Shown in pieces: positions 8,112 to 25,875 of a stretch of 32,000 nt of DNA; positions within the stretch are counted from its first letter, which is position 1; each line of letters opens with the position of its first letter. Source of the DNA: Gammaproteobacteria bacterium (GTDB taxonomy: Bacteria; Gemmatimonadota; Gemmatimonadetes; Longimicrobiales; Gaopeijiaceae); contig VXNP01000060.1 in the NCBI GenBank assembly GCA_009840525.1, positions 2,683-34,682 of the forward strand, written 5' to 3'. Made by a program: the position numbers and the translations under genes. The notes under the pieces are model-generated. The model saw nothing but the letters and a program-made list of their open reading frames with translations, had not been told where the DNA came from and made no database searches.

Positions 8112-8258
8112 CGCGGCGCCCGGCGCGACACCGCCACAGAAGATATGTCACGGAGGGTTCCGGGTTCCTGAAACGGGTTGCGGCGACGTCGCCGCGTGGG
8201 CCACCTTCAGCCGCATCCGCCATCCCGCCTCACCGGCGCCCGTTCCCAGGAGCCAGCC

Positions 8259-10796: not shown

Positions 10797-10914
10797 TCAC
10801 ATCGCGGCCATGACCGCGGCCGAAGCTGGACCATCTGCCGCGGCCCGAGCCCGGGCATCGCCCGCGGCGGCCACCAACAAACCGGCAGGGATTTGGGGGA
10901 GGAGGAGATACCGC

Positions 10915-12675: not shown

Positions 12676-12733
12676 CCGTCGCTTCAGGCCTTGCGCCGCC
12701 GAAGGCTCGCGCCGGACCCACGCTGGGCGAGGT

Positions 12734-13570
12734 TCAGCGCATCCTGATGGCCGCCCCCACGCCCGCAAAGAAGTCTTCGGCGGCATCGTTCAGCCCGACG
12801 CCGACCCGGACATCCCATTGCGAATCGTCGGCTGTGAGCCAGGTCAGGCCCGCGTTGAAGTAGTGTTCCTGCGGGGCATCGGCCCCCGTGGGGAAGAACG
12901 CGTACCATTCGCCGTACACGCCCCCGCGCGTCCCGACGCCGGCGCCCGCGACCGCCGACTGGGCCCACTCCGGGTAGCTGTCCTCGCCATCCGCGACGGC
13001 CAGGTTGACCTGCGTGCTGCCCGCCAGGGAGAGTCCTCCGGGCGCCTCCCAACTGTAGACGAGATTCACGCCCGGCAGCGCGCGTCCGCCGGAGAACAGC
13101 GTGCTGCCCGTGGGCAGGGTCATCTGCGGCAGGACCGCGAGCGCCGGAAGGCGACCCGTCTGCCGGGTGAGTTCGACCTTGGCCCCCAGGTAGAGGTCCT
13201 CGATCCCGCTGTCGCTGGCTCCGCTGCCCGCGGAGCTCACGCGGGTCACCGGGCTGGCCGCCACCCGGAGTTCGAGCCAGTCCGCCGCAACCCCCGCGCG
13301 CAGCAGCAGTTCGCCCAGCGTATGCGTCTGGACCGAATTGCCGTCGGACCAGTCTCCGCCGAACGTGTAACCGAACTCGATCTGGAGAACGCCCCGGCCC
13401 ACGGCGGATGCCGCTTCCGTGAAATCGGGGCGATCGGCAGTCAGGGGACGGGACGCCGGGGCAGCCGGTGCCCCCACGGGCTCCTGCGCGGACCCATTCA
13501 TCGGGCGCCCGAGCATCGTGCCGACCGCCAGGGCGGCGAGCAGAACGCCCGGAGCCGGTCGAGTCGTCAT
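12734..13570 (-). CDS. Outer-membrane beta-barrel, MetA-pathway/phenol-degradation-like transporter family
   Basis: In track ORF 12734..13672 I prefer the ATG at 13570, which gives the signal MTTRPAPGVLLAALAVGTML. Family-typical TADRPDFTEAAS motif. Alternating beta-strand pattern. Aromatic-rich C-terminal region (DFFAGVGAAIRMR). Confidence 0.6.
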   Translation of the reverse strand: MTTRPAPGVLLAALAVGTMLGRPMNGSAQEPVGAPAAPASRPLTADRPDFTEAASAVGRGVLQIEFGYTFGGDWSDGNSVQTHTLGELLLRAGVAADWLELRVAASPVTRVSSAGSGASDSGIEDLYLGAKVELTRQTGRLPALAVLPQMTLPTGSTLFSGGRALPGVNLVYSWEAPGGLSLAGSTQVNLAVADGEDSYPEWAQSAVAGAGVGTRGGVYGEWYAFFPTGADAPQEHYFNAGLTWLTADDSQWDVRVGVGLNDAAEDFFAGVGAAIRMR

Positions 13571-13822
13571 CTCCAGCAGCTCTCCCAGGTAGTTGGGACA
13601 CGAAACGTACCGGAACGCGCCCCCTCCTGGAACCAGAGGGCTGGCGGCTGGTTTGGGGGCAGTAGCCGACATGAAGCGGCGACCCCTGTTGCCGCCCCTT
13701 GCGCCGCCTGCCCATCGCTATCGCCGTCCCCCTTGCCTGAAGGCACCGTGTACCTTCACCTTGATTCGCGCCAAACAACCGTTGCGGACGACTTTAACGC
13801 CAGTGCCTCTCCAGGACCTGCC

Positions 13823-14866
13823 ATGCCTCTGCGTCGACTATCCGATGGACTGAAGGCCGCGTTCGGCGAAACGAACGTCAGCCGTCGCGTGCGGGATTTC
13901 GAAGGATGGACGGACAGAGCGTTCGGCGCGGATGGCGGCGCAGCCGACTACGACCACACCCGGACCGTAACGGAGTACTACGACCTTTGCAACGAATTGA
14001 TGGTCTTCCACTGGGGAGAATCCCTGCACTTCGCGCCGCTGTCGCCCGACGAGAGCCTGAAGGACTCAAAGATTCGGCACCAGCGGCAGATGATCGCCAA
14101 GCTGGAACTGCGTGAAGGCATGACGGTGGCCGACATCGGTTGCGGCGTCGGGGGTCCAATGCGCCGCGTCGCCCGCGAGGCCGGGGTCCGGGTATTGGGA
14201 ATCAACAGCAATGAAGTCCAACTGAGCAGGGCCAGGTCGCTGAATGCCGAGGCGGGGCTCGATCACCTGGTTGACTGCCTCGCTTGCAGCTTCATGAATA
14301 TGAGCTCCATCGCAGACGCCACCTTCGACCGGGGCTACGCGATCGAATCGACCTGCCATGCTCCCGACAAGGCGGGCGCGTTTGCCGAAATCCACCGTAT
14401 CCTCAAGCCCGGAGCCCTTTTCTGGGGCCAGGAAATGTGCATGACGGATATGTACAATCCCGACGACGATCGCCACCGGGCCATCAAGCGGGAACTGATG
14501 CACGGCATCGCGCTTCAGGACATTGCAACGTTCGGTGAGGTAGACCGGGCCCTCGAAGCCGCGGGATTCGAGGTCCTCGAGGCGACAGACCTCGCTGTCG
14601 ACGAGACCGGTCCGGCGACGCCGTGGTATCGGCCCCTGGAAACCCGGCACGGATGGCTCGGCACCGCTCTCTTCCGGACTCCCATGGGCCGCAAGGTGTT
14701 TTCCTGGGGAACCCGGCTGGCCGAGCTTCTGCGGGTGTTCCCAAAGGGATCGGCGGAGGTTGCCAAACTCATGGATCGGACTGCAGACGCCTATGTCGAC
14801 GGCGGCAGGACCGGGATCTTCACGCCGCTCTACTGCTTCCTGGCGCGCAAGCCTCTTCAGGGCTAG
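13823..14866 (+). CDS. Sterol C-24-methyltransferase (ERG6/SMT1)-type SAM-dependent methyltransferase homologue
   Basis: This is the C-terminal 347 codons of track ORF 12818..14866, from the ATG at 13823. Several blocks align by eye with yeast Erg6. YYDLCNELMVFHWGESLHFAP matches YYDL..YEYGWG.SFHF. VADIGCGVGGPMRRVA is the SAM motif I. YAIESTCHAPDKAGAFAEIHRILKPG matches YAIEATCHAP. The Sterol_MT_C-like tail is PWYRPL...GIFTPLYCFLARKP. The upstream part of the track ORF is antisense to the barrel gene. Confidence 0.85.
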   Translation: MPLRRLSDGLKAAFGETNVSRRVRDFEGWTDRAFGADGGAADYDHTRTVTEYYDLCNELMVFHWGESLHFAPLSPDESLKDSKIRHQRQMIAKLELREGMTVADIGCGVGGPMRRVAREAGVRVLGINSNEVQLSRARSLNAEAGLDHLVDCLACSFMNMSSIADATFDRGYAIESTCHAPDKAGAFAEIHRILKPGALFWGQEMCMTDMYNPDDDRHRAIKRELMHGIALQDIATFGEVDRALEAAGFEVLEATDLAVDETGPATPWYRPLETRHGWLGTALFRTPMGRKVFSWGTRLAELLRVFPKGSAEVAKLMDRTADAYVDGGRTGIFTPLYCFLARKPLQG

Positions 14867-17800
14867 GAGCCCCGGGTGGTCAAGTGCAGGCGCAGCGAGG
14901 AAAGCGCGGGCACCAGGAACATCAGGATGGCCGTGGTGAAGAGGATGCCGCACCCGATCGAGGCGGAGAAGGGGACGAAGAACTGCGCCTGAATGGCGTC
15001 TTCGAGAATCAGCGGCGTAAAGCCGAGGAAGGTGGTGAGCGAAGTCAGCATGATCGGGCGAAAACGGCCCTTGGCCCCCTCGATGATCGCCTCGCGCGCC
15101 GGAAGGCCCTCCTCAAGTTCCTGATCGATGAAGTCCATCATGACCAGGGAATCGTTCACCACCACGCCGGCCAGGCCGAATATCCCGACAAAGGACTCCG
15201 CGCTCACCGCCACTCCCAGGATCCAGTGGCCCAGGATCACGCCGACGAACCCGAACGGGATGATGGCCATGATGATGAACGGCTTGGTATAGGAACGCAG
15301 CGGAATGGCCAGCAGCGCGAAGATAATCAGCAACGCTATCGCGAAGCCGCGGTAGAGCGCACCCAGAGAGTCGATCTGCTGCTGTTGTTCGCCACCAAAG
15401 GCGTAGGTCAGGTCAGGCTCCGTATCGACCAGTCCCGCGAGGATGGTGTTCTCCAGAATGCCATTGGCTTCCCCGGCGGAAATCACACTTGCGTCTACAT
15501 CGGCAGTGACCGTGGCGACGCGTTGGCCGTCCTGGCGACGGATGGCCGGCGGCGACATGGCCGCGCTCAGTGAAGCCACGCGGCTCACCGGCACCTCGGC
15601 GCCGGTTGCCGTACGGACGAGGTAGCTCTCGATGTCGGTGATCGAGTTGCGCTGCTCCTCGGGCAGCCGGACGTAGACCCGGACTTCGTCGCGTCCCCGC
15701 TGCACCCGCAGGGCCTCCGCGCCAAAGAAGGCGGCTCTCGTCTGCCGGGCAAGCGCGTCGAGCGTGAGGCCGAGGGTTCGTGCTTCGGGCAGCAATCCCA
15801 ACTGGACTTCCGGGATGCCGGGCGTGTGGTCCGAGCGAATGTCGAAGACACCCCCCACTCGACGGAGCTCATCGACCACGGACGATGCAATCGTAACCAG
15901 GCGCTCCGGATCCGGATGGGACAGCACGGCTTCCACCGGGTTGCCCAGCGTGTAGATCTCGCTCATGAAGGTGATCCCGCGCACATGGGGCAGGATGCCC
16001 ACCTCCTCACGCCAGGCCTGCATGACTTCTCCCGACGTGATGCGCCGCTGCTGCGCCGGCAGGAGCTTGAACTCGATGGTGGCGATGTTGGCTTCGGGGT
16101 TCAGCGTGGGCGAGGGGTTGAGACCTCCGGTCTCGATCCGCGACCGCTGGCCGACGACAACCGTAACGCCGGACAGAAGCGGAGACGCATCTTCGGGCCG
16201 GCCCTCGGAAAGACGCTGGATGACCCGGTGACCGGCCGCCTCCAGTTCCCGTGCCACCGCATCCGTCTGCTGCGCGGTGGTTCCGTCCGGCATCTGAAGG
16301 GTGGCGGTTACGAAGTCCCCCTCGACCTCGGTCGCGAAGGTGGTCGGTACGATGCCGGCCGGCAGCAGGGAAACGGTGAGTATGAAGAGAGCGACGGCTG
16401 CGGAGAGCGTCACGCCGGGTCGATCGGTCGCGAACCGCATCCCGTGATCCAGGGGGCCCTGTATGAAACTGTTCAGCAGGGAGTCGACCCGACCCTGGAT
16501 GCGGCCGACGAACCGCTCCGCGCCGGTGCGGGGCGCCCAGTCCGGACCGTGCAGATGGTGCGACAGGTGGTTGGGCAGCACCAGCAGCGATTCGATCAGC
16601 GAGATCACCAGCATGGCGATGACGATGATGGGCAGCGCCTTCCAGACTTCTCCGAACCCCGCGGGAATGAAGAGCAGGGGAACGAACGCAACGATGGTGG
16701 TGAGCACCGCGAAGATCAGCGGCACCTTGATCCGCCGCGCACCGCGGATGGCGGCGACAGTGCCCGGCGTCCCTCGCATTCGTTCCAGATGAATATGTTC
16801 GGCGACGACGATCGCATCGTCCACGATGATTCCGATGGCGAGTACGAACGAGAAGAGCGAGACAGCGTGGATCGGGATGTCGAACACCATCATGGCGGCC
16901 AGGGCGCCGATCCCCGCAACGCCAAGGCCGACGGCTACCCAGAAGGCCAGCCGGACTTCCAGAAACAGGCCCAGCGCGATCAACACCAGCAGCAGCCCCA
17001 GAGCCCCGTTCTTGAGGAGGAGGGCGCCACGCTCCGAGAACGCCGTGGAATCGTCGTTCCAGATGGTCACGCCCACGCCGCCGGGGAGTGAAGGCACCAC
17101 CTCGTTCGCCACATGCTCCTTGACGGCACGGGCCACGCTCATGACCCTTTCGCCCTCCGCCCGGGATACCTCGACGAAGACGGCGGGCCGGCCCTGATGC
17201 CGCACGATCAGATCGGAGTCCTGGAAACCGTCGCGCACCTCGGCGACGTCACCCAGACGCACGACCGTGCCGTCGTCCCGGCTGAGGAGAACGATTTCCT
17301 CGAAATCCTGTTGGTCGTAGCTCTGGCCAAGTGTGCGCACCCGCACCTGGGACTCCCGGGTATCGATGCTCCCCGCGGACAGGTCCAGTGAGTTACTGCG
17401 AATCGTGTTCGCGATGTCGGTCAGGGTCAGGCCGAGAGCCCTGAGACGCTGCAGCGGCACCTCGATCGAAACCTCGTAGTTGCGCACTCCGCTGGTCACG
17501 ACCTGGGAGACGGAGGGAAGCGCAGCGAGTTCGTCTTCGATCCGGTACGCGAGTTCCTTCAGCGAGCGCTCGGGAACGTCGCCGTAGACGATCAGCCGAA
17601 TCATGCTCTGGGCGTTGGTCATCTCGCGTATCTGGGGCCGCTCGGCTCCGCCCGGAAACGTCTGAATACGCCCGACCGCCGACTCGATCTCGTCCTTCTT
17701 GGCGCCCATGTCCGTGCCGGAGTTGACTTCAACCCTGACGGACGCCATCCCCGGGGCGGCTATGGACCTGACCGCCTTCACATCGGCGAGTCCCCTGACC

Positions 17801-18042
17801 TGGTCCTCGATCTTGACGACGATGGCCTCTTCAACCTCCTCGGGGGTTGCGCCGGGGAAGGGCACGGAGATCTCGAACTGGTTGAAGGGTACCTCGGGCC
17901 ATCCCTCCTGCTCGAGACCGGTCAGCGACACCAGGCCCGCTGCGATGATCCCGAGCATCAGCAGATTGGCGGCGACGCTGTTGCTCGCCATATAGGCAAT
18001 GGGGCCGCCCGGTTCGCCGTGGTTGTCTGGGTTCCGACTCAT
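14863..18042 (-). CDS. RND-superfamily inner-membrane permease (AcrB/HAE-like), no cognate adaptor or outer-membrane factor adjacent
   Basis: Track ORF, 1059 aa. The N-terminus PIAYMASNSVAANLLMLGIIAAGL is typical of RND permeases. It has 12 TM segments in a 1+large loop+5 repeat architecture. Conserved TM4 region: AIGIIVDDAIVVAEHI. Its stop overlaps the methyltransferase stop in the palindrome CTAG (14863-14866). Confidence 0.9.
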   Translation of the reverse strand: MSRNPDNHGEPGGPIAYMASNSVAANLLMLGIIAAGLVSLTGLEQEGWPEVPFNQFEISVPFPGATPEEVEEAIVVKIEDQVRGLADVKAVRSIAAPGMASVRVEVNSGTDMGAKKDEIESAVGRIQTFPGGAERPQIREMTNAQSMIRLIVYGDVPERSLKELAYRIEDELAALPSVSQVVTSGVRNYEVSIEVPLQRLRALGLTLTDIANTIRSNSLDLSAGSIDTRESQVRVRTLGQSYDQQDFEEIVLLSRDDGTVVRLGDVAEVRDGFQDSDLIVRHQGRPAVFVEVSRAEGERVMSVARAVKEHVANEVVPSLPGGVGVTIWNDDSTAFSERGALLLKNGALGLLLVLIALGLFLEVRLAFWVAVGLGVAGIGALAAMMVFDIPIHAVSLFSFVLAIGIIVDDAIVVAEHIHLERMRGTPGTVAAIRGARRIKVPLIFAVLTTIVAFVPLLFIPAGFGEVWKALPIIVIAMLVISLIESLLVLPNHLSHHLHGPDWAPRTGAERFVGRIQGRVDSLLNSFIQGPLDHGMRFATDRPGVTLSAAVALFILTVSLLPAGIVPTTFATEVEGDFVTATLQMPDGTTAQQTDAVARELEAAGHRVIQRLSEGRPEDASPLLSGVTVVVGQRSRIETGGLNPSPTLNPEANIATIEFKLLPAQQRRITSGEVMQAWREEVGILPHVRGITFMSEIYTLGNPVEAVLSHPDPERLVTIASSVVDELRRVGGVFDIRSDHTPGIPEVQLGLLPEARTLGLTLDALARQTRAAFFGAEALRVQRGRDEVRVYVRLPEEQRNSITDIESYLVRTATGAEVPVSRVASLSAAMSPPAIRRQDGQRVATVTADVDASVISAGEANGILENTILAGLVDTEPDLTYAFGGEQQQQIDSLGALYRGFAIALLIIFALLAIPLRSYTKPFIIMAIIPFGFVGVILGHWILGVAVSAESFVGIFGLAGVVVNDSLVMMDFIDQELEEGLPAREAIIEGAKGRFRPIMLTSLTTFLGFTPLILEDAIQAQFFVPFSASIGCGILFTTAILMFLVPALSSLRLHLTTRGS

Positions 18043-18230
18043 TTGTGCTGGATCGGCCTGGGTGTGGACGAGGGACGCGCACGGACAGGATACTCATTGG
18101 GTACTCGCCGTGCACCGTCAAGGCACCCCGCGGTGCCCGCGATACCGCCGGCGAACGCGATCCGGGGATCGGCCCTCGAAGAACCGTCCGGTGTTGCGTC
18201 ACAACGACGCTTTCTCGCGACAGATTCCGT

Positions 18231-18260
18231 TTGACGCAGCCGTGCCCGTGGAGCTATGCT
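18231..18260 (+). promoter_or_regulatory. Candidate sigma70-like promoter upstream of the P450 gene
   Basis: TTGACG (18231-18236), an 18-nt spacer, then TATGCT (18255-18260). It lies in a locally AT-richer patch of the 377-bp divergent intergenic region between the RND and P450 genes. Confidence 0.3.
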
Positions 18261-18419: not shown

Positions 18420-20447
18420 ATGGCCGTTGCGACAGAGAATGTCTCCACCCAGGCGCTGACGCTGCCCGAGGAGCTCATCCTGATGCTCCTCAACGAGGAA
18501 AACGGCTACTTCCACCAGGTACCCGGCTGGCGGCTGCATTGCGCCGTCATCGGCGCGGTGCTCGCGGAACTCTCGCTCCTGACGCGCATCGACACGGACA
18601 TGGAGTCGCTGTTCCTGGTGGACGCGACGGAAACGGGCGACCCCGCACTGGACCCCATTCTGGAGGAAATCGCAGGCGAGCAAGTTCAACGGAACGCCCA
18701 GTACTGGATCGAGCGCCTCGCGCACCGTGCCGAATCGATCATCGATCTGACGCTGGACCGGCTGGTTGAACTCAAGATCCTGGAACATCACGACGGCGAG
18801 TTCTGGACCTTGGCTCGCAGGGTCTGGCAGACGGAACTGTACGGCGGCACCGAGGAAGGCACCGCGCGCCAGTTCATCAGGACGCGCATCGGCAAGGTCA
18901 TCTTCACCGAGGAGATCCCCGACCCGAGAGACATCATCATCATCTGCCTGGTGAACTCGTGTGATGTCTTTCGTTTCATATTCCAACTGGACGACGAGGC
19001 CCACGAGCGCATCGAGCTCATCTGCAAGATGGACCTGATCGGCCGCTCGATCGCGGCCGCGGTGGTGACCAACCTCGGTGGCCCGGTGGTTCAACGGTCC
19101 CGCCTCGCGAAGCAGATTCCGCGTGCCTCGCTGCGCAAGTTGCTGTCGAACCCTCACCTGCGTAGTGGCAACCTGCCCGCGCTCGTCGCGGATCTGGCCA
19201 GGGAGTACGGCCCGGTGTTCGAGCTCCGGCCGCCGTTCTCGCAACCCATGGTCTTCCTTGCCGGACCACGGGCAAACCGCGGGGTGAATCGGCACGGGCG
19301 CAGATATCTGAGAGCCAGGGACTATTTCGCCGACTTCGAGCAAGTCTATGGTGCGTCCGGAGTCCTGCCCTCCCTGGATGGCGCAGACCACTTCCGGCTT
19401 CGCAGGGCCATGGCGCCAGGCGTCTCGCGCGCGAGGCTGGCGGGACAGGGAGACCTGTTGTTTCGTCAGGCCCGTGCATACATGGCGGATTGGGCGGTGG
19501 GTGACACCTACCCGGCAAGACGCCTTTGCCGACGCATGATCAACAGCCAGATCTCTCCTCTCATGTTGAGCGTGGATTCGCAGGATATCATCGACGATCT
19601 GATCGTGTTCAAGGAACGCGCACTCAACGTCCACATCCTGAACGGCCTTCCCAAGTTCATGCTGAAGACCCCGGGAATGAAGCGCCGGGCGCAGGCCGTG
19701 GAGACGTTGCTGGAACGGGTCTACAGCGTCCATACTCCCGCCCAGCGGGCCGGCTGCCCGCGCAGCCTTGCCGATGACTGGCTGAGCCTGCACGCGAGCG
19801 ATCCACAGTTCGTACCGGAGTCGAATCTGCGGTTCGCCCTGTCGGCCGCGCTGGTTGCCAGCGTGTATCTCGGGGATGGATTCAACTGCGCGCTCTATGC
19901 CATGGCGTCACAGCCAGAGCTCTATGCCAGAATCCGGGATGAGGCCGGTGTGTTCTTCCAAAACGGGGAACCGGATGGCGACGACCTCAACCTTTCCGCG
20001 ATGGACGTCACCCGCCGTTTCATCAAGGAATGCCTGCGGCTGTACCCGATCGTCCCGATGTCCATGCGGAACGTGATGAACACCTGGGTGGTCGAGAACT
20101 ACGAGATACCGATTGGAACGCGGGTCGCCATCGCCCAGACAGCCTCGCATTTCATGGAGGATGTTTTCCCGGACCCCTTCACCTTCGATATCGACCGCTA
20201 CAAGGATCCCCGCAATGAGCACCGCAGCCCGGGGTACGCTCCCTATGGCCTGGGCACACACAGGTGCCTCGGCTCCCGGTGGATGGAGTTGCAACTGGGC
20301 GTCAACCTCCTTCTGGTCGCGCACTACTTCACGATCGAGGTGTCCCCGGCGAACTACAAGTTCCGATTCAGCCCCTTTCCGTCGATGAAGCCGAGCAAGG
20401 ACCTCAAGTTCCGCATCGCAGAGCAGGTGCGCGAGCTGCCGTCCTGA
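18420..20447 (+). CDS. Fusion protein: N-terminal GPP34/GOLPH3-family domain + C-terminal cytochrome P450
   Basis: Track ORF, 675 aa. Residues ~10-225 follow the GPP34 pattern: LTLPEELILMLLNEENGYF, GAVLAELSLLTRI, TGDPALDPILEEI, DPRDIIIICLVNSCDV. The C-terminal ~430 aa is a P450. It has the K-helix ExxR (KECLRLYP), a PERF-like FDIDRY, and the haem loop YAPYGLGTHRCLGSRW (Cys codon at 20265). Confidence 0.85.
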   Translation: MAVATENVSTQALTLPEELILMLLNEENGYFHQVPGWRLHCAVIGAVLAELSLLTRIDTDMESLFLVDATETGDPALDPILEEIAGEQVQRNAQYWIERLAHRAESIIDLTLDRLVELKILEHHDGEFWTLARRVWQTELYGGTEEGTARQFIRTRIGKVIFTEEIPDPRDIIIICLVNSCDVFRFIFQLDDEAHERIELICKMDLIGRSIAAAVVTNLGGPVVQRSRLAKQIPRASLRKLLSNPHLRSGNLPALVADLAREYGPVFELRPPFSQPMVFLAGPRANRGVNRHGRRYLRARDYFADFEQVYGASGVLPSLDGADHFRLRRAMAPGVSRARLAGQGDLLFRQARAYMADWAVGDTYPARRLCRRMINSQISPLMLSVDSQDIIDDLIVFKERALNVHILNGLPKFMLKTPGMKRRAQAVETLLERVYSVHTPAQRAGCPRSLADDWLSLHASDPQFVPESNLRFALSAALVASVYLGDGFNCALYAMASQPELYARIRDEAGVFFQNGEPDGDDLNLSAMDVTRRFIKECLRLYPIVPMSMRNVMNTWVVENYEIPIGTRVAIAQTASHFMEDVFPDPFTFDIDRYKDPRNEHRSPGYAPYGLGTHRCLGSRWMELQLGVNLLLVAHYFTIEVSPANYKFRFSPFPSMKPSKDLKFRIAEQVRELPS

Positions 20448-20452
20448 CCGCG

Positions 20453-21490
20453 TTGGGTGATGCGGGCGGGCGGCGGGCATCGACCTCCGTCCACAGCCAC
20501 GGCCTCCCGCCCCTCCTCCGAAGCATCCCCGTCATTGCGGCGCTGGCCGCCTGCGGCGGTGACTCCGGTACCGAGCCGCCCGGGGAGCCGCCACGCGCCC
20601 CCGCCGCCATTGTGGTCGTGTCGGGGGGCGGGCAGGAGGGGATGGCGGGCAGCCCGCTCGCCGAGCCCGTGGTGGTGCGGGTGGACGACGCGGGCGGCTC
20701 GCCGTTCGCGGGCGTCACCGTGACCTTCTCCGCCGCCGCCGGGCACGGATCCGCCGACCCGGCCACCGCGGCCACCGACGCGGCCGGCCTGGCCCGCACG
20801 ACCTGGACGCTCGGCGATGCGGCCGGCGCCCAGACCCTCACGGCGTCGGTGGCCGGGGGAGTGTCGACCGACATCCGTGCGGCCGCGGGAGAGCTTCCCT
20901 CCCCGCCCGACTCCGCCGTCTACAGCGTCGTCTTCAACGCCACCTGGAGCGCCGCCACCCACCCGACCGACTACCCGGGCGGCGCGCACTTCTCGCCGCT
21001 CATCGGCGCGGTGCACGACGACGGCGTCCGCTTCTGGGCGAGCGGCGAGACGGCCACCCCCGGCATCGAGAGCATGGCCGAGACGGGAGGGACCAGCACG
21101 CTCAGGTCGGAAATCCGCGCGCACCTCCCGGCCGCCGTCCTCTCCGTCATCAGCGGACCCGGCCTCGGCACCAGCCCCGCCAGCGCGACCGTCTCCCGCG
21201 TCGTCGTCCGGGGGGACTACCCCCTCGTCACCCTGGTCACCATGATCGCGCCGAGCCCCGACTGGTTCGTGGGCGTTTCCGCGCTGTCGCTGATGGACGA
21301 CCTGGGGCTGTGGGTGGACGAACTCCAGGTCACCCTCTATCCCTACGACTCGGGCACCGACGACGGAACCACCTGCACCTCCGCCAACGCCGACTCCTCG
21401 CCCAGGCAGCCCATCCGCAGCCTCCGCGGCATGACCCCGTTCTCGGACGCGCCCATCGGAACGTTCACGTTCACGCGAGTCGGGGGCTAG
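20453..21490 (+). CDS. Lipoprotein with Ig-like (Big-type) domain + Spondin_N domain
   Basis: Same frame as track ORF 20264..21490, but that ORF start overlaps the P450 3' end. The first in-frame start after the P450 stop is the TTG at 20453, so the start is tentative. Lipobox: IPVIAALAAC-GGDSG. Ig-like unit: IVVVSGGGQEGMAGSPLAEPVVVRVDDAGGSPFAGVTVTF. Spondin_N blocks: YSVVFNATWSAATHP, HFSPLIGAVHD, IAPSPDWFVGVS, LYPYDSGTDDG. Confidence 0.8.
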   Translation: MGDAGGRRASTSVHSHGLPPLLRSIPVIAALAACGGDSGTEPPGEPPRAPAAIVVVSGGGQEGMAGSPLAEPVVVRVDDAGGSPFAGVTVTFSAAAGHGSADPATAATDAAGLARTTWTLGDAAGAQTLTASVAGGVSTDIRAAAGELPSPPDSAVYSVVFNATWSAATHPTDYPGGAHFSPLIGAVHDDGVRFWASGETATPGIESMAETGGTSTLRSEIRAHLPAAVLSVISGPGLGTSPASATVSRVVVRGDYPLVTLVTMIAPSPDWFVGVSALSLMDDLGLWVDELQVTLYPYDSGTDDGTTCTSANADSSPRQPIRSLRGMTPFSDAPIGTFTFTRVGG

Positions 21491-21523: not shown

Positions 21524-22735
21524 CTACCAGTCCGACGAGTGCTCGTCGTGCAGCGCGGTCGGCAACCGGTACGAGTACCTCAGCTTCTCGAAGCCGGCGA
21601 ACTCCATGAGGGTGTCGAACCGGGCGCGATCCTGCTTCGCCCCCAAGCGGGGAAGCACCTTGCGGATGACGCCCCGGGACCGGTTCTGAATCCGCATCCA
21701 GGGGATCACCTTCCGCCTGCGGGTGGGAAACAGGAATGAATCGGCGAGCTTCTCGCCGATCAGCTCCCGTGACGCCTGGGTCACGACGCGGGCCATTTTC
21801 CGGCGCTCTGCGGGGTCCGTGACACCGATGATGACGGGCGCGCTGTTCACGATGCTGTTGGCCATGATGATGGCGTCCAGGTCCGCGGGAGGTTCGCACA
21901 TGGAGCCGATCTCGAACGCCCGGCAAGCCGAGGCTTCGTCGTCGAAGATGAGATCCTCCGGGATGCCCATCAGCAGCCCCGTGTAGCGCCAGACGTGGAT
22001 GTAGGCCTCCCGCTCCTCCGTGCTGAAGTCGCCCCCCAGCGTGGCCACGTGCCGCATCAGCCGGCCCGAGAAGGCCGCCCCGGCCAGGAGCACGTGCGCG
22101 GCGCTGATCGGCTCTCCCAGCCGGTCGTGATCCCATTCATCGGACTGGTTGATCAGGTATCGGGACTGAGCGTGCACCAGCCGGACGCGCAGGGTGAGCC
22201 TCCATCCGTCCCCCCCGGGTTCCATTCCACCCGGCAGGTACTGCTCGACAAGCTGCATCCCGTTCTGCTTGAGGCGCCGCACACCCGAGTTGGTGACCCG
22301 TCCCCGGATCCGGAACGACTTGCTGATCAGGGTGGAGAACCCCTCGACGATGCTGCCGCCCACCAGGGCCGCGAGAACGATGTCCGAGTTTCGCAGAAAG
22401 GCGCGCGAGGCCATGCGGGCGATGTCGGCATCGAACCAGTCCGGCACGGCGGTCGAGTACTCCACGAACTCGACGAGGGAATCGGGGGCGCCCGTCTGCG
22501 GTGCGTGGGGATTGTCCAGTGCCTGCGCCAGCGTCTGGTGCAGTTCCCCGGGATCCAGGTCCGAAAGATCCCGAACGACGGCATCCGCCAGCGGATCGCC
22601 GATCATCGTGTTGCGGACGTAGGCCTCCGCGAGCTCCGGATCGTGCTGGCGGGCGGCCTCGTATCCCGCGACGTAGGCACCGGGTACTTCCAAACCCTCT
22701 CCCGAACCGGCTCGCAGCGGCGGCTGGCGGATCAT
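21524..22735 (-). CDS. MpaB / Lcp (rubber-oxygenase catalytic domain, ex-DUF2236) family oxygenase
   Basis: Track ORF, 403 aa. Family-like blocks: GDPLADAVV near the N-terminus, VPDWFD, RLTLRVRLVHA, and HVWRYTGLLMGIPE. It is the last cistron of the minus-strand Rieske operon, with a 25-nt gap after the P450-tail ORF. Confidence 0.7.
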   Translation of the reverse strand: MIRQPPLRAGSGEGLEVPGAYVAGYEAARQHDPELAEAYVRNTMIGDPLADAVVRDLSDLDPGELHQTLAQALDNPHAPQTGAPDSLVEFVEYSTAVPDWFDADIARMASRAFLRNSDIVLAALVGGSIVEGFSTLISKSFRIRGRVTNSGVRRLKQNGMQLVEQYLPGGMEPGGDGWRLTLRVRLVHAQSRYLINQSDEWDHDRLGEPISAAHVLLAGAAFSGRLMRHVATLGGDFSTEEREAYIHVWRYTGLLMGIPEDLIFDDEASACRAFEIGSMCEPPADLDAIIMANSIVNSAPVIIGVTDPAERRKMARVVTQASRELIGEKLADSFLFPTRRRKVIPWMRIQNRSRGVIRKVLPRLGAKQDRARFDTLMEFAGFEKLRYSYRLPTALHDEHSSDW

Positions 22736-22760: not shown

Positions 22761-22928
22761 TCAGACCGGCACCTCGCAGACCCTCCCGGCGATGCGGAAC
22801 TCCGGCTTCCGGCTCGGCTTCATCGACGGGAAGGGGCTGACACGGTGCTCGTAGTTCTTCGGCGCCACCTCGAGCGTAAAGTGATGCGCCATCATCAGTA
22901 CGTTCACCATGAGCTTCAGTTCCATCAT
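22761..22928 (-). pseudogene. Relic of a second cytochrome P450 (C-terminal 54 residues only), preserved as a 55-codon ORF translationally coupled to the Rieske gene
   Basis: It encodes MMELKLMVNVLMMAHHFTLEVAPKNYEHRVSPFPSMKPSRKPEFRIAGRVCEVPV. This aligns without gaps to the last 54 aa of the P450 at 18420..20447 (MELQLGVNLLLVAHYFTIEVSPANYKFRFSPFPSMKPSKDLKFRIAEQVRELPS). By hand alignment 33 of 54 residues are identical. No haem-Cys loop lies upstream. Its first ATG (22926-22928) overlaps the Rieske TGA (22925-22927) as ATGA. Confidence 0.75.
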
Positions 22929-24055
22929 GTCCCGTTCCCCTCCGGCAGATGCCCGGATCCGATTCGATCCGCCCACGCGCGGCGCAGCTCACGATCCGAA
23001 GCTGGACCGGCGGTCTTACTCATACCTATGTCGGAGTAGAACTGACGGCAATACAGCCGGTACTTGCCGATGGGCCCGTCGGCCCGGCAGAGACGCGGCG
23101 GGGACTGGTAGCGCTTCCGCTCCCAGATCACCACGTCCTGCGCCACGAACCGCCGCTCCTCGTAGATCAGGATGCGGTTCATCAGCCTGTTGCGGAGCTT
23201 CTTCGGCAGGAACCCCAGCCCGGCGATGTAGCGCCCGGGCCTGGCGACTTCGCGCGCCTGGCTGACCAGCGTCAACTCGACGAACTCGCCGTCGACCGGA
23301 GTCGAGAGGACCCACAGCCTGGAATCCATGCCGATCGTCTTCTCGTGAACCTCGACGAACGAGTAGCCCAGCCCATGGACGTGGGTGACGGCCGAGACCT
23401 CGGATACGATGTCGATCAGCCCCGCGACGGTGCGGACGTTCGTGAACTCGAAGCAGCTCTTCAGGTAGGCGCCGTCGATGGAAAAGGCTGTCGGTTCCAC
23501 ATCCCGGTAGCCGTGCGTGTACTCCAGATGCTCCACGTCCACGGAGTTCTCGGTCGTCTCCTGGGGATGGCCACGGAAGCGCATGGTGGTGGAACGCAGC
23601 CCGCTCCAGTCCGCGCCCGTGGGGGGCTCCTCCGGCAGATCCCACTGCGGCGCCCGCCCACCGGCGCCATACCAGGCGAAGACCATGCCCAGGATCTCCC
23701 GGGTCTCGTAGAGCTTGAGCTTCGCGGCCCTGGGGGCCGGGGCGTTGGGCGTGGCGACGCACTGGCCGGTGGCATCGAAGGTGAAGCCGTGGAAGGGACA
23801 CACCAGGCAGCCGTCCCGGATGGTGCCGCCGGCCGTCGGCCCCAGGTGCGAGCCCAGGTGGGGGCAGAACGCGTCCGCCACGCAGACGCGGCCGTCGTCG
23901 TCGCACCAGGCGACGATCTGCTCGCCCATCCAGGTCTTCTCGATGAGCTTTTCCGTCAGCAGGGTGTCGCGCGTCGCGATGAAGTACCACCCCTCCGGGA
24001 ACGGAGGCAGTCGATCGACGCGGCGCGGGATCCGCCCGTTGGCTTTCGGGATCAT
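22925..24055 (-). CDS. Rieske [2Fe-2S] non-haem-iron oxygenase (KshA / Neverland / SdmA-like class)
   Basis: Track ORF, 376 aa. Rieske ligands: CPHLGSHL...CPFHGF. Mononuclear-iron motif: ENSVDVEHLEYTH (D-x2-H-x4-H). The C-terminal block QDVVIWERKRY..P.L..ADGPIGKYRLYCRQFY resembles what I recall from Neverland-type steroid desaturases. Confidence 0.85.
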   Translation of the reverse strand: MIPKANGRIPRRVDRLPPFPEGWYFIATRDTLLTEKLIEKTWMGEQIVAWCDDDGRVCVADAFCPHLGSHLGPTAGGTIRDGCLVCPFHGFTFDATGQCVATPNAPAPRAAKLKLYETREILGMVFAWYGAGGRAPQWDLPEEPPTGADWSGLRSTTMRFRGHPQETTENSVDVEHLEYTHGYRDVEPTAFSIDGAYLKSCFEFTNVRTVAGLIDIVSEVSAVTHVHGLGYSFVEVHEKTIGMDSRLWVLSTPVDGEFVELTLVSQAREVARPGRYIAGLGFLPKKLRNRLMNRILIYEERRFVAQDVVIWERKRYQSPPRLCRADGPIGKYRLYCRQFYSDIGMSKTAGPASDRELRRAWADRIGSGHLPEGNGT

Positions 24056-24089: not shown

Positions 24090-24189
24090 TACGGACTCTG
24101 CAAATGTCGCGCCGAGGGCGAGGTTTGGCAAATGCGTGTGCGACAAAACGACGAAAATCTGCGACGATTTTGTGTAGAGGCACGGCGTT
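24090..24189 (-). promoter_or_regulatory. Candidate promoter/operator region upstream of the Rieske operon
   Basis: On the minus strand, TTGACC (plus 24184-24189), a 17-nt spacer, then TACACA (plus 24161-24166). Downstream is an AT-rich segment with the inverted repeat AAAATC-tgcgac-GATTTT (24143-24160). GCGAC occurs twice. The direct repeat GCAAATG occurs at 24090-24096 and 24118-24124. Confidence 0.3.
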
Positions 24190-24195
24190 CGGGGG

Positions 24196-25248
24196 TCAAC
24201 ACGGTCCTTCTCCCTTACCCGCATGCGATGCCTGCGTGGTCGCTTTGGGCTTCAGGACGACGACGGGAACTCCGCTCGACTCGTTTTCCGGCAGGGGAGA
24301 CTTGCCCAGCTTCTGCCCCATCGCCTTCACGCTCTTGAGTCCGGCCAGTTCCTCGGCACCGGCGATCGCCTCGTGATCCGCATCGTAGTAGTCGAACCAC
24401 GGTAGTCCGGCCTTGGCATACTGTCTTGCCGTCGGCGGGACGGTGGGAGGATGCTCTCCGGTAATGGCCATCCACTGTGCCGAGTTCGCCATCGTGACGA
24501 AGCATCGGCTGCCGTGCTCCTGGTCCCAGACGTCCAGTCCATGAGGATCGTCGTAGATCTCCTGGCGCATGCGGCCGCCGGGGGCCAGACCCATCTCCTT
24601 GGCGGGCGGGCTGCAGACCATATCGAACCCGTCGGGCGGTGGCGAACGCCGCATCTCGTCCGCCAACGACTCTTCGTACCTCCTCAGCAACTCGTCGAAG
24701 ACCTTCCGCTTCATCGGGTACGCCGCAATCTGGAGCCCACCGTGCACCGCTTCGCCGGTGAGCTGTTCCTCGGCCGTGTATCCATCGCCCAGCGGCATCG
24801 CTACGAACTGCCGGATGACGCCCTCCTCGACGCAGTAGCCGTCCAGCCACGGCTGCTCGGGCAGCACGACATAGTTCTGCGGATCCTGGCTCAGGCCTTC
24901 TTCCCACGGCTGACCGCTGATCGCGCAGATCTTTCCAGTGGCGATCTTCACGGCCACCGGGTATGGGTGCCTGAAGCGCTCGTCGTATCCCACATCGAAG
25001 CTGATCCAGAGTGCCTCGGCCTGGTGAATCGGCATCACGACACCGCCGCGACGCACCATCTCGCGCTTAAGGCGATCCTCGAAGTCGTCGAGGTGGCGCA
25101 GCGGAAACCGCCCCAGCCCCGGCGGCAGGTAGTAGGTCCGGTCATCGTCCGGAATCCGCAGGGTTCTCTGGAACTCGATGCTGCACCGGGCGTCGGCATG
25201 TACGTCCGGGAACCGGAACGTCAACTGATCGTGCTCGAGTGTGATCAT
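24196..25248 (-). CDS. Conserved-looking hypothetical protein (350 aa), family not recognised
   Basis: In track ORF 24196..25269 (TTG start) I prefer the ATG at 25248, with AGGAG 11 nt upstream. It has no TM segment or signal peptide. Distinctive blocks: FQRTLRIPDDDRTYYLPPGLGRFPLRHLDDF, PQNYVVLPEQPWLDGYCVEEGVIRQFVAMPLGDGYTAEEQLTG, and AGLPWFDYYD. It lies 32 nt downstream of the XRE gene stop. Confidence 0.6.
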   Translation of the reverse strand: MITLEHDQLTFRFPDVHADARCSIEFQRTLRIPDDDRTYYLPPGLGRFPLRHLDDFEDRLKREMVRRGGVVMPIHQAEALWISFDVGYDERFRHPYPVAVKIATGKICAISGQPWEEGLSQDPQNYVVLPEQPWLDGYCVEEGVIRQFVAMPLGDGYTAEEQLTGEAVHGGLQIAAYPMKRKVFDELLRRYEESLADEMRRSPPPDGFDMVCSPPAKEMGLAPGGRMRQEIYDDPHGLDVWDQEHGSRCFVTMANSAQWMAITGEHPPTVPPTARQYAKAGLPWFDYYDADHEAIAGAEELAGLKSVKAMGQKLGKSPLPENESSGVPVVVLKPKATTQASHAGKGEGPC

Positions 25249-25280
25249 TGCGTTTGGTGCTCCTGTCAAAGGGTGAGTGT

Positions 25281-25634
25281 CTACCAGTCTCCGTCCCGCA
25301 CGACCCGCACGACCCGGAAGATCGCTTCGTCCGGCGCCTCCCGGAGTTGCCGGATCAAATCCGCGAAGAGCTTCGGTCTCTTTCGGATGATCTCCTGCAG
25401 ATCGCTCGAAACCTTTCCCGCCATCGCCAGGAAGACGTCCGGATCCTGACCCAGCTCGCGGGCGAGCCGCACCGTGGTGGCCTCCGAGGGCGGCGCAACC
25501 ACGCCGCGCTCGATCTTGCTCAGGTAGGCCGGCTCCACCCCCACGCGCCGAGCGACCTGGCGCAGGGAAAAACGTCGATCGCTCTCACGGAGTCGTTCGC
25601 GGATCTGTCTTGCCGTCGTACCGAATTGGGGCAT
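25281..25634 (-). CDS. XRE-family helix-turn-helix transcriptional regulator
   Basis: Track ORF 25281..25745. HTH: RFSLRQVARRVGVEPAYLSKIERG. I prefer the ATG at 25634 because the candidate -10 sits at 25667-25672, which excludes the ATG at 25664 and anything upstream of it. The C-terminal helical extension is ~60 aa. Confidence 0.8.
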   Translation of the reverse strand: MPQFGTTARQIRERLRESDRRFSLRQVARRVGVEPAYLSKIERGVVAPPSEATTVRLARELGQDPDVFLAMAGKVSSDLQEIIRKRPKLFADLIRQLREAPDEAIFRVVRVVRDGDW

Positions 25635-25666
25635 CGCAAGTCGGAGGTGTGAGTAGTGTGTCATAC

Positions 25667-25700
25667 ATAGTACACGCTCATAGGTGGTTCGGCAACCACC
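25667..25700 (-). promoter_or_regulatory. Candidate promoter of the XRE gene with a perfect palindrome over the -35
   Basis: On the minus strand, TTGCCG (plus 25690-25695), a 17-nt spacer, then TACTAT (plus 25667-25672). A perfect inverted repeat GGTGGTT-cggc-AACCACC (25683-25700) is centred on the -35 hexamer. The surrounding patch is locally AT-rich. Confidence 0.4.
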
Positions 25701-25875
25701 CAGCGGGTTGAGTGCGAACCCGAACGACAGCTGGCGCTGTCTCAACGCTCGCGAAGATGGGCCGGATCACCCGCGGAGATGTTGCCTGAACGTCACGCCG
25801 AACTCACCGTGGATGTTCAGCCGCTACGCTTGTGGAAGCGGCTGGCGAGACCGGCTTGACCGCACGAGGTGATCC

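Follow-up and report, generated by a model that had tools for sequence, protein, structure and literature searches.

A GPP34–cytochrome P450 fusion of the GPP34_L family within a conserved gene set of putative sterol modification and transport

Eukaryotic GOLPH3 binds PI4P, and it also binds the basic tails of Golgi enzymes. Among bacteria, the closest described counterpart of the protein considered here is the GPP34_L family of Ferreira et al. (2025, Microbiome 13:4, PMC11706023), in which a GPP34 domain and a cytochrome P450 are carried on one polypeptide. As described there, the family comprises 656 proteins, all of them from sponge symbionts, ranks among the most widespread of the gene families specific to these symbionts, and is reported in most symbiont phyla; members are described from sponge and coral symbionts only, and not from free-living relatives, and are expressed in hospite. 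The article puts forward the only published idea regarding their role, namely that they are secreted PI4P-binding effectors, and does not appear to report a test of the PI4P pocket residues; sterols are mentioned nowhere in it. Rare fusions of GPP34 to a Rieske protein or to an ABC ATPase are also noted there, as are separate P450 genes which adjoin short GPP34 genes in some symbionts. Brown et al. (2023, PMC10070321) and Kelly et al. (2022, PMC9531527) studied bacterial sterol clusters in the same sponge- and coral-associated organisms, and the former found eight of ten symbiont sterol methyltransferases (SMTs) to be active; neither paper mentions a gene for a GPP34-P450 protein or the genes that accompany it (KshA-like Rieske, amine oxidase, RND). 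Bacterial P450s covalently joined to a second domain are represented by P450 BM3 and P450RhF, and by the CYP51-ferredoxin of M. capsulatus (PDB 6mcw, 7snm), which, with CYP51 enzymes generally, also shares the sterol-pathway context discussed below.

The protein examined here is encoded in a window, by which we mean the whole stretch of 32,000 nucleotides (contig VXNP01000060.1) that was analysed. It has the architecture of GPP34_L (GPP34 followed by P450, ~660–690 aa) and the same ecological distribution, both domains lie on one chain, and its nearest loci are contigs of metagenome-assembled genomes (MAGs) with names of the SB06xx type. As such, the object is identical to that described by Ferreira et al. 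and only the interpretation differs, a secreted effector in their account and a sterol enzyme in ours. The fusion architecture is already known; what looks new is its place in a conserved gene set for sterol modification and transport, together with the loss of the residues with which GOLPH3 binds PI4P. The features to which the text refers are as follows.

12734–13672, minus strand: 'putative MetA-pathway of phenol degradation' family protein (Phenol_MetA_deg, E 4.5e-26)
13823–14866, plus strand: sterol C-methyltransferase 'SMT-a', 347 aa (Sterol_MT_C, E 6.5e-17; CMAS; Methyltransf_11)
14863–18042, minus strand: AcrB-type RND transporter, 1059 aa (ACR_tran, E 1.4e-154)
18420–20447, plus strand: GPP34–cytochrome P450 fusion gene, GPP34_L member, 675 aa (uninterrupted ORF with ATG start, both Pfam domains, full-length homologues)
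18462–19064, plus strand: GPP34 (GOLPH3/Vps74-like) domain, aa 15–215 (Pfam, profile against GOLPH3, hhalign)
19065–19115, plus strand: inter-domain linker, aa 216–232 (aa 222–228 of low confidence in the AF2 model)
19116–20444, plus strand: P450 catalytic domain, aa 233–675 (Pfam, PDB phmmer, Foldseek)
19866–19871, plus strand: Tyr483-Leu484 of the I-helix, in place of the acid-alcohol pair (D/E-T) (clade alignment)
20241–20273, plus strand: haem-binding loop PYGLGTHRCLG, aa 608–618, with the axial ligand Cys616 at 20265–20267
21524–22735, minus strand: MpaB/Lcp-like oxygenase, placed between the genes for the fusion and the Rieske protein (MPAB_Lcp_cat, E 1.2e-16)
22925–24055, minus strand: KshA-like Rieske non-haem-iron oxygenase, 376 aa (Rieske and KshA_C domains)

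The original prediction held that this single ORF is a genuine fusion of the two named domains, and on each of these points it stands. The GPP34 family (PF05719) matches aa 15–215 over profile positions 1–198 of 201 with E 7e-29 and 101.8 bits (cut-off 29.1), thereby supporting the N-terminal homology, the failure of which in HMM searches would have refuted the prediction, and the P450 family (PF00067) matches with E 6.2e-35 and 121.3 bits (cut-off 22.8). More than 120 protein clusters of ~675 aa, at 70–98% identity to the window protein, carry both domains, this clade being highly conserved across phyla, and dozens of further fusion clades (23–57% identity) can be aligned from end to end. Relatives are encoded in 201 stretches of species-representative genomes, of which the best 80, many on chromosome-titled records, span almost the whole protein; the carriers are mostly MAGs with names that point to sponge or coral hosts, and the window itself shares 94–96% DNA identity with MAG contigs of Aplysina type (SB0661_bin_31, SB0675_bin_31). 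An assembly or sequencing error that joined two separate genes at about 19.05–19.15 kb, the other weakness which had been named beforehand, has already been refuted and is given practically no weight: the same single ORF recurs among the species-representative genomes, in several cases on a record whose title denotes a chromosome, and more than 240 protein clusters among the matches listed have it too, with the linker region (aa 216–232) aligned throughout. The GC3 of the ORF (0.81) is usual for genes of the window; a promoter and terminator scan returned one weak sigma-70-like site at 18231–18260 and no terminator, an outcome that carries little information. It had further been held that no characterised example of such a fusion was known, which is accurate insofar as no member has been characterised biochemically, while the architecture itself had been described as GPP34_L.

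The N-terminal domain belongs to the same homologous fold family as GOLPH3 and Vps74 (PDB 3kn1, 9qpq, 2zih), with a family profile that matches GOLPH3 at E 1.6e-12 and Vps74 at 1e-10 (hhalign probability 98%) and a predicted structure that shares a helical core and a beta-hairpin of the same kind. Unlike these proteins, the domain of the window is joined to an enzyme, and the segment equivalent to residues 159–168 of GOLPH3 is deleted. In two independent alignments W81, R90, R171 and R174 of GOLPH3 fall opposite P35, I44, E105 and I108, such that three of the four PI4P-contact residues are clearly lost; the W81 site is ambiguous because W37 lies only two residues away. Within the clade, the positions of I44 (I/V/M) and I108 stay hydrophobic. 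The net charge of the N-domain is -19, compared with about +1 for the GOLPH3 core, and across the family it has a median of -17 (range -24 to -9). The predicted hairpin at aa 136–147, WQTELYGGTEEG, which aligns roughly with the 'NFLLFD' segment of GOLPH3 (AF2, hhalign), is polar and acidic, and, with net charge and hairpin sequence taken as proxies, the domain presents neither a basic surface nor a hydrophobic hairpin tip. A PI4P-binding module of the GOLPH3 type is therefore an improbable description of this domain, as judged from its replaced pocket residues and acidic character, and the earlier suggestion of a phosphoinositide-binding recruitment module is not borne out. No transmembrane segment is predicted in the N-domain, and no hydrophobic or twin-arginine segment of a Sec or Tat signal was found at the N-terminus, where the GPP34 domain begins at residue 15. 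The proposal that the domain occupies the position of an anchor does agree with what we observe, as it lies precisely N-terminal, where P450s of the eukaryotic type carry theirs.

At ~aa 233 the P450 part sets in with an N-terminal segment that contains Pro, as is usual, and then runs into 'EYGPVF'; its place in the cytochrome P450 superfamily is supported by the profile match, the Cys loop, the ExxR motif (ECLR, E537–R540) and a PERF-like motif (FDIDRY, 589–594). The I-helix departs from this regularity. Its A-S-V-Y-L-G-D segment is essentially invariant in the clade and carries a one-residue deletion relative to the canonical A/G-G-x-D/E-T, and the window P450 thus does not have the acid-alcohol pair of a canonical monooxygenase, while canonical-class fusion paralogues retain AGx[DE]T. 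The replacement by Tyr483-Leu484 suggests, from sequence, a non-standard route of oxygen activation or a non-standard type of reaction. The corresponding motif of CYP51 is of the AGQHTS type. By sequence, the closest solved relatives of the domain are CYP51 enzymes (PDB 6mi0/6mcw; E 1.6e-22, 82.8 bits, aa 252–650, phmmer), a similarity that is remote. An identity as CYP51 was considered and rejected given the modest score of this best match, the identity of ~21% (Foldseek), the ASVYLGD I-helix and the presence of a separate P450 in the Nitrospira locus described below; in addition, the fused domain of the window protein is N-terminal and has no redox centre, in which it differs from the CYP51-ferredoxin. 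The structure prediction that had been called for was obtained with AF2 from an alignment of 72 sequences that included divergent clades (pLDDT 84, pTM 0.74), a model from 27 close homologues having been discarded at pLDDT 51. Compared with the PDB by Foldseek, the model matched P450 BM3, CYP184A1 and M. capsulatus CYP51 with a target-normalised TM of ~0.8; only P450 chains were returned, and none spanned both domains. No P450 equivalog in NCBIfam came near its cut-off for the fusion.

The haem domain of BM3 is thus among the top structural matches, and it is reasonable to ask whether the fusion is likewise a self-sufficient enzyme. Unlike the partner domains of BM3 and P450RhF, GPP34, which is the sole N-terminal Pfam family, has no flavin or iron-sulphur motif, and therefore the enzyme cannot be self-sufficient through it; this candidate was rejected. 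The original prediction had also remarked that no ferredoxin or reductase is encoded nearby, and we concur: a regular-expression scan over the six frames of the window found no ferredoxin-type Cys motif besides the Rieske protein's own centre, and Pfam annotation of the main ORFs found no reductase. The absent Thr, taken together with the missing redox partner, could mean that the enzyme catalyses something other than an oxygenation.

Within the window, SMT-a and the RND transporter lie on one side of the fusion gene and the Rieske oxygenase on the other, the RND and fusion genes being divergent about a 377-bp intergenic region. This company, which is the most informative of the observations and was overlooked in the original prediction, is conserved. 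Across the 81 loci carrying the fusion gene, which come from at least six phyla, an SMT is a neighbour in 50, a KshA-like Rieske protein in 58 and an RND-superfamily protein of AcrB or MMPL/SSD type in 67, and at least one of the three is present in 71, with an order and strand that vary between phyla; the ten loci that have none of them within 8 kb include some that are incomplete. A flavoprotein of the amine-oxidase type recurs as well, as do proteins of the LppX family or of the outer membrane. Orthologues of SMT-a are the genes that most often adjoin the fusion directly (median gap of 40 bp where downstream), and SMT-a is 69.6% identical to the fusion-adjacent SMT of the Nitrospira locus L017. 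The Rieske neighbour has KshA as its best PDB match (E 3.8e-21) and a weak SdmA match as its only one in NCBIfam (34 bits against a cut-off of 600), and the MMPL neighbour matches Patched and Sterol-sensing in Pfam and HpnN and BstA in NCBIfam; neither the fusion nor the SMT, the Rieske protein or the flavoprotein could be named by an NCBIfam equivalog.

An oxidosqualene cyclase (OSC) lies within 8 kb of the fusion in only three of 80 loci, such that the module of most genomes is detached from de novo synthesis, and from the OSC/CYP51 core, unlike the clusters of Brown et al. and Kelly et al. In Nitrospirales, however, the fusion directly adjoins such a cluster, being contiguous with genes for de novo sterol synthesis (two SMTs, a squalene epoxidase-OSC fusion, a separate P450 and an SdmB-like protein). 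The order in L017 is fusion, SMT, SMT, squalene epoxidase-OSC fusion and a separate P450 of 490 aa; in the second locus, L040, it is fusion, SMT-a, Rieske, outer-membrane protein, amine oxidase, SMT-b and SdmB-like. The latter order agrees with the numbering that Brown et al. (2023) gave for the scaffold they call 'Nitrospira sp., coral reef', and the Nitrospirales fusion gene sits one gene outside the cluster which those authors annotated. By gene order, SMT-a corresponds to the second SMT of the published clusters, the one distant from ERG6 (~35% identity), and the '2 of 2' SMT of Brown et al. appears, on the same grounds, to be of the fusion-adjacent type. The linkage of the fusion to sterol enzymes is thus evident both in the Sterol_MT_C genes near 50 of the 81 loci and in the contiguity with the sterol pathway in L017 and L040. 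Paralogues of the Y class that were sampled again have neighbours of this kind (Rieske/KshA_C, IspH with two SQS_PSY, polyprenyl synthase, DUF1295, SDR, and MMPL or ACR_tran), a KshA-like Rieske gene adjoining three of the four, while two sampled canonical-class paralogues and the 'GLHT' one have other gene contexts, the canonical-class ones adjoining EcKL kinase-MFS genes, sulfatases and a thiolase.

The functional reading of the family draws wholly on gene neighbourhood and homology. On balance, and with modest confidence, we favour a cytoplasmic P450 of the GPP34_L family, with a role in the tailoring of sterols or of triterpenoids close to them, over a secreted effector. The P450 would oxidise or desaturate a sterol intermediate drawn from the cytoplasmic membrane, as one of several successive steps that also include those of SMT-a and the Rieske oxygenase; the substrate or the product would be carried across the envelope by the RND system. 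Electrons would be supplied by a housekeeping ferredoxin and reductase, given that neither is encoded in the cluster. In place of a membrane anchor, GPP34 would dock the enzyme by protein-protein contact, which we consider the most likely mode given the loss of the PI4P pocket and the strongly acidic character of the domain. By analogy with GOLPH3 on the tails of Golgi enzymes, a candidate partner would be a basic stretch on the cytoplasmic side of the transporter or of some other protein in the pathway; binding to an anionic lipid is less likely. We infer this adaptor role from the lost residues and the charge, and the published GPP34-Rieske and GPP34-ABC-ATPase fusions, along with the short GPP34 genes that adjoin P450s, fit an adaptor that serves the enzymes and transporters of one pathway.

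Several other explanations merit consideration. As in the original prediction, GPP34 might itself be a membrane anchor that binds lipid, be it a phosphoinositide or a different anionic lipid, and stands in for a transmembrane helix, delivers lipid to the P450, or does both; its location directly before the P450 start, in the anchor position of microsomal P450s, and a substrate that is probably a membrane lipid would both suit this role, but the lost pocket, the negative charge throughout the family and the polar, acidic hairpin render it rather improbable. The proposal of Ferreira et al. (2025) would have the protein exported into the sponge phagocyte, where it binds phagosomal PI4P and blocks maturation, with the role of the P450 left open. 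The same losses of contact residues and the N-domain charge of -19 weigh against it, as do the lack of a Sec or Tat signal ahead of a GPP34 domain that starts at residue 15, the oddity of a reductant-dependent haem enzyme as cargo, and conserved neighbours that are sterol enzymes and RND transporters and not secretion systems, no genes of which were seen in the window or in those locus contexts that were annotated. Although the PI4P binding of eukaryotic GOLPH3 and the reported restriction of an in hospite-expressed family to symbionts speak for an effector, we regard this as very improbable.

If the sterol neighbours are taken at face value, they could also denote the breakdown of host sterols. 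CYP125 oxidises the sterol side chain, and a P450 with a KshA-like oxygenase and a transporter resembles the first steps of actinobacterial cholesterol degradation. In catabolism or detoxification of this sort the P450 would attack the side chain, the KshA-like oxygenase the rings, and the RND system would act in import; the gene trio and the catabolic KshA as best solved relative of the Rieske neighbour are in keeping with it. The most tightly linked gene, however, encodes a sterol methyltransferase and so belongs to biosynthesis, the module joins a biosynthetic cluster in Nitrospirales, and genes for beta-oxidation, KstD and Hsa were not seen in the window or the annotated loci, such that we deem catabolism unlikely. 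Finally, the P450 may be meant for a xenobiotic, or for a natural product other than a sterol, and may share a genomic island but no pathway with its sterol-type neighbours. Secondary metabolism is well developed in sponge symbionts, and the contexts of the canonical-class paralogues noted above would be compatible with such an enzyme. That the linkage to SMT, Rieske and RND genes outlasts rearrangement across at least six phyla, and that sampled Y-class paralogues are again found with isoprenoid, KshA-like Rieske or RND genes, argues otherwise, and we hold this explanation to be quite unlikely.

Returning to the favoured reading of a sterol-tailoring enzyme, a bolder version of it, which we offer tentatively and would not ourselves bet upon, is that the fusion, SMT-a, the KshA-like Rieske protein and RND/MMPL form a horizontally spread module for unconventional sterols that, in sponge and coral symbionts from numerous phyla, couples their making or remodelling to envelope transport, with the Y-for-acid P450 performing a non-standard step and GPP34 docking the enzyme. 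This step may be, for example, a desaturation which readies the side chain for methylation, and the products would possibly include the multiply alkylated side chains of 'sponge biomarkers'. The acidic GPP34 may dock the enzyme on the transporter or on a partner enzyme, and would then be a bacterial metabolon adaptor and a new use of the GOLPH3 fold. The evidence recasts GPP34_L as part of bacterial sterol chemistry and names candidate substrates and partner genes; it bears on the persistence of symbionts in sponges, and on the bacterial share in the unusual sponge sterols on which the disputed 'sponge biomarker' record of early animals is based. If correct, the reading would for the first time place a bacterial domain of the GOLPH3 fold in a functional context, and would exemplify a P450 that bears a soluble adaptor domain at the anchor position.

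Some content of the window is more local. A 1.58-kb segment at 24171–25747 is specific to it, with no family matches and no clear terminal repeats. The MpaB/Lcp-like gene is lineage-specific, occurring in the window and in two related loci (L001 and L003) only, and its membership of the sterol module is uncertain. The Phenol_MetA_deg gene is likewise confined to one lineage, clustering with L001–L003 only, and its product may be part of the same transport route; in L040 an OMP_b-brl gene lies inside the cluster in its place.

The open reading frame at 18420-20447 (+) opens with ATG and runs through 675 codons without interruption, and its third-position GC of 0.81 is similar to that of the other genes of the window (window GC 64-73%). 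A GPP34 domain (PF05719) is found at aa 15-215 (profile positions 1-198 of 201, E 7e-29, 101.8 bits, where the Pfam cut-off is 29.1 bits), which supports the GPP34 homology predicted for the N-terminal part, and a p450 domain (PF00067, E 6.2e-35) fills the rest, with the ExxR pair E537-R540, FDIDRY at 589-594 and a haem loop, PYGLGTHRCLG, that contains Cys616. As such, the original prediction of a GPP34–cytochrome P450 fusion described this gene correctly. It had also raised the prospect of two genes joined in error near 19.05-19.15 kb, which is not borne out. More than 120 clusters of ~675 aa, 70-98% identical and each with both Pfam domains, were recovered from 5.8 billion proteins, and scanning a single genome for each species gave 201 stretches encoding a relative, the best 80 of which show near-whole-protein coverage at 65-97% identity, many on records titled as chromosomes. 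Full-length relatives across protein clusters and species-representative genomes rule out an assembly artefact. A further 120 clusters came from a profile search, and HMMER, run exhaustively over 1.84 billion cluster representatives, added dozens more fusion clades, 655-690 aa long and alignable over their whole length at only 23-57% identity. This is an old and diversified fusion that is under selection, with a genuine junction at 19.07-19.12 kb. Variants were also encountered: protein P0131 (872 aa) has an extra N-terminal region of ~216 aa, P0193 (444 aa) carries its GPP34 domain at the C-terminal end, and locus L087 (8001-12295) holds tandem paralogues, the second seemingly in two pieces, a GPP34 fragment of 97 aa and a remainder of 551 aa, that adjoin an ankyrin-repeat acyltransferase and two ABC transporters.

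The same architecture has already been published as GPP34_L (Ferreira et al. 2025, Microbiome 13:4, PMC11706023), and the novelty of the bare fusion finding is accordingly low. Its authors count 656 GPP34+P450 proteins, exclusively in sponge-symbiont genomes of many phyla, show expression in Aplysina aerophoba, and describe rare GPP34-Rieske and GPP34-ABC-ATPase variants as well as separate P450 genes at most five genes from short GPP34 genes; in their hypothesis GPP34 is secreted as an effector, binds PI4P and halts phagosome maturation, and no role is assigned to the P450. Sterols and steroids are mentioned nowhere in PMC11706023, the fusion and its Rieske and RND companions are absent from Brown et al. 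2023 (PMC10070321) and Kelly et al. 2022 (PMC9531527), and our literature search found no publication linking GPP34 to bacterial sterol metabolism. The genomes retrieved here fit the ecology of Ferreira et al., many being MAGs named SB06xx_bin, RHO1_bin, Plut_, Poriferihabitaceae or Spongiisociaceae. Over 10-18 kb the window itself shares 94-96% DNA identity with contigs from SB0661_bin_31, SB0675_bin_31 and a "Gemmatimonadetes" MAG, and its fusion protein falls inside the Gemmatimonadota group of a neighbour-joining tree of fusion proteins. Loci L001, L002 and L003 ('Gammaproteobacteria bacterium SB0661_bin_31 / SB0675_bin_31', 'Gemmatimonadetes bacterium jk18x27bins.12') lie in the same group, and the Gammaproteobacteria label of the two SB contigs is probably a mis-classification.

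What we add to the published GPP34_L description is not the architecture itself, but a testable re-interpretation in which the window's clade is part of a conserved module to modify and transport sterols, contiguous with de novo sterol biosynthesis in Nitrospirales. We hold the link of the fusion to sterols or related triterpenoids with moderate confidence. The members in the window are as follows, SMT-a being the type of sterol C-methyltransferase (SMT) that adjoins the fusion.

Members of the module in the window
13823-14866 (+), sterol C-methyltransferase SMT-a
14863-18042 (-), AcrB-type RND transporter
18420-20447 (+), GPP34–P450 fusion
22925-24055 (-), Rieske oxygenase

When the ORFs of 80 loci and the window were clustered by all-against-all BLASTP and the recurrent families annotated, an RND-superfamily transporter was present in 67 of the 81 loci, of either the AcrB type, as in the window, or the MMPL type, which has Patched/sterol-sensing matches and similarity to HpnN/BstA. 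A KshA-like Rieske oxygenase with Rieske and KshA_C domains (58 of 81) had KshA as its top PDB match (3.8e-21) and a weak match to SdmA as its sole NCBIfam match; the sterol C-methyltransferase of ~345 aa (50 of 81; Pfam Sterol_MT_C, 6.5e-17) follows at a median gap of 40 bp when downstream of the fusion. Amine-oxidase-type flavoproteins (31 loci), MFS transporters (17) and LppX/LprAFG-family lipoproteins (17) recur less often. At least one of SMT, Rieske and MMPL occurs in 71 of the 81 loci, some of the others being truncated. Neighbour order and strand vary by phylum: the SMT is downstream and convergent in Dehalococcoidia, upstream beyond the divergent AcrB gene in the window's lineage, and on the fusion's own strand in some Latescibacterota, which argues that the linkage has been kept through rearrangement and not merely inherited.

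In Nitrospirales the module adjoins the genes of de novo sterol synthesis. Locus L017 (Nitrospira sp. bin75) reads fusion, SMT-a, a small ORF, a second methyltransferase (SMT-b), a squalene epoxidase–oxidosqualene cyclase fusion of 1219 aa and a separate P450 of 490 aa. The window SMT is 69.6% identical to the SMT-a of this locus and only 43.5% to SMT-b, which marks SMT-a as a type of its own that accompanies the fusion. Locus L040 (cluster region 7959-17670) reads fusion, SMT-a, KshA-like Rieske, outer-membrane beta-barrel protein, amine oxidase, SMT-b and an SdmB-like 3beta-HSD/epimerase. This order agrees with the numbering of the "Nitrospira sp., coral reef" scaffold in Brown et al. 2023 (PMC10070321; 270 SMT, 274 SMT, 275 sdmB, 276 sdmA, 277 ERG24, 278 ERG11, 279 ERG1/ERG7), whose sterol cluster has been probed by experiment. 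Judged by gene order, the fusion would be the gene immediately preceding the first SMT listed there (Supplementary Data 1), and the KshA-like Rieske, beta-barrel and amine oxidase genes would be the three unlisted genes between the two SMTs.

The nearest solved structures to the P450 domain by sequence are CYP51 sterol 14alpha-demethylases (6mi0/6mcw, E 1.6e-22, aa 252-650), and a second AlphaFold model of the fusion (pLDDT 84, pTM 0.74) superposes on P450 BM3, CYP184A1 and Methylococcus CYP51 with TM ~0.8 normalised to target; no solved chain spanning both domains was among the structural matches. Assignment as a CYP51 was rejected on the grounds of ~21% identity, no NCBIfam equivalog being approached, and the separate P450 beside the cyclase in L017. 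In the window's clade the unusual I-helix motif is A-S-V-Y483-L484-G-D, essentially without variation and with one residue deleted, the canonical form being A-G-x-D/E-T. Two main classes make up the superfamily, with a few sequences showing H-T or other variants: the Y class, A-[SG]-x-Y-[LTM]-G, comprises the window's clade and clades ~37-57% identical to it, and the canonical class, AGx[DE]T, stands at ~27-38% identity. The contexts of sampled paralogues are listed below, and in this small sample of four Y-class paralogues the association with isoprenoid and sterol genes looks like a Y-class property.

Neighbours of sampled paralogues
P0327, Y class: KshA-like Rieske, RND adaptor, IspH, two squalene/phytoene synthases, MMPL
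P0342, Y class: polyprenyl synthase, tripartite RND pump, amine oxidase
P0373, Y class: epimerase, DUF1295, KshA-like Rieske, two TetR
P0300, Y class: KshA-like Rieske, SDR, ACR_tran
P0272, canonical class: EcKL kinase/MFS genes, sulfatases
P0285, canonical class: EcKL kinase/MFS genes, another P450, thiolase
P0317, GLHT: tandem fusion copies, ankyrin-acyltransferase, two ABC transporters, ACR_tran

As originally noted for the P450 and the Rieske protein, the window encodes no ferredoxin or reductase gene, nor was one seen in the annotated clusters, where the analysis was ORF-based and short genes may be missed. Both oxygenases would therefore need housekeeping partners; alternatively, the P450 may not need normal proton-relay chemistry, the acid-alcohol pair being absent.

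With respect to the GPP34 domain, a profile built from 20 divergent N-domains matches human GOLPH3 (E 1.6e-12) and yeast Vps74 (1e-10), and hhalign, in which the window served as reference row, yields a probability of 98%. The GOLPH3 PI4P contacts W81, R90, R171 and R174 lie opposite P35, I44, E105 and I108 in both alignments, and a single-sequence Vps74 alignment is concordant for R97. The W81 site is ambiguous because W37, invariant in the clade though not in the superfamily, lies two residues away; the three PI4P-contact arginines are clearly lost in the window's clade. Canonical-class paralogues mostly keep Arg at the R174 position. The domain has a net charge of -19 (the family runs from -24 to -9, with a median of -17) versus ~+1 for the aligned GOLPH3 core, the hairpin predicted at aa 136-147 has a polar, acidic sequence, and no signal peptide, twin-arginine motif or transmembrane segment was found in the N-terminal part of the fusion. 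Canonical PI4P binding and simple electrostatic attachment to anionic membranes are both disfavoured by these observations, which also make Sec- or Tat-dependent secretion unlikely; the domain in this clade has lost the features underlying the published secreted-effector hypothesis. Of the proposal that GPP34 replaces a membrane anchor as a phosphoinositide module, the position stands, as the domain occupies the place of the N-terminal anchor of eukaryote-type P450s with the P450 part starting from ~aa 233, and phosphoinositide binding does not, given the lost pocket residues and the charge. GOLPH3 recognises basic cytoplasmic tails of Golgi enzymes, and by analogy the GPP34 domain might act as a docking adaptor through protein-protein contact. 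Such a role, in which we place less confidence than in the sterol link, would fit with the acidity of the domain, the rare GPP34-Rieske and GPP34-ABC-ATPase fusions and an RND transporter as constant neighbour.

Several further features of the window were observed. The SMT-AcrB block (13830-18072) is 92-93% identical in DNA to loci L005 and L007 of two other Gemmatimonadota lineages, where it is inverted and on the opposite side of the fusion, and for the fusion gene identity is only 78%, which suggests that the block was recently exchanged or relocated. A Phenol_MetA_deg-family protein (12734-13672, -) adjoins SMT-a, where the L040 cluster has its beta-barrel gene instead; together they hint that a hydrophobic molecule may have a route across the envelope. 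A Spondin_N and bacterial Ig-like (Big_1) protein (20264-21490, +), which looks like a eukaryote-like domain protein, is encoded directly downstream of the fusion; the ORF as listed overlaps the fusion's 3' end and its real start is probably further on. A Spond_N protein also lies near a paralogous fusion in locus L081 (2058-4157). An MpaB/Lcp-like oxygenase (21524-22735, -) between the fusion and the Rieske gene occurs only in the window's lineage (window, L001 and L003). The ~1.58 kb at 24171-25747, of slightly lower GC (0.63-0.65), are missing from L001 and L003, which are elsewhere 94-96% identical to the window, and may be a strain-specific insertion; neither of its ORFs (24451-25449, +; 24196-25269, -) matches Pfam or NCBIfam, and a search for clear terminal repeats found none. 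Last, a 392-aa protein at 4101-5279 (-) carries three RidA/L-PSP (Ribonuc_L-PSP) domains in a row on a single chain.
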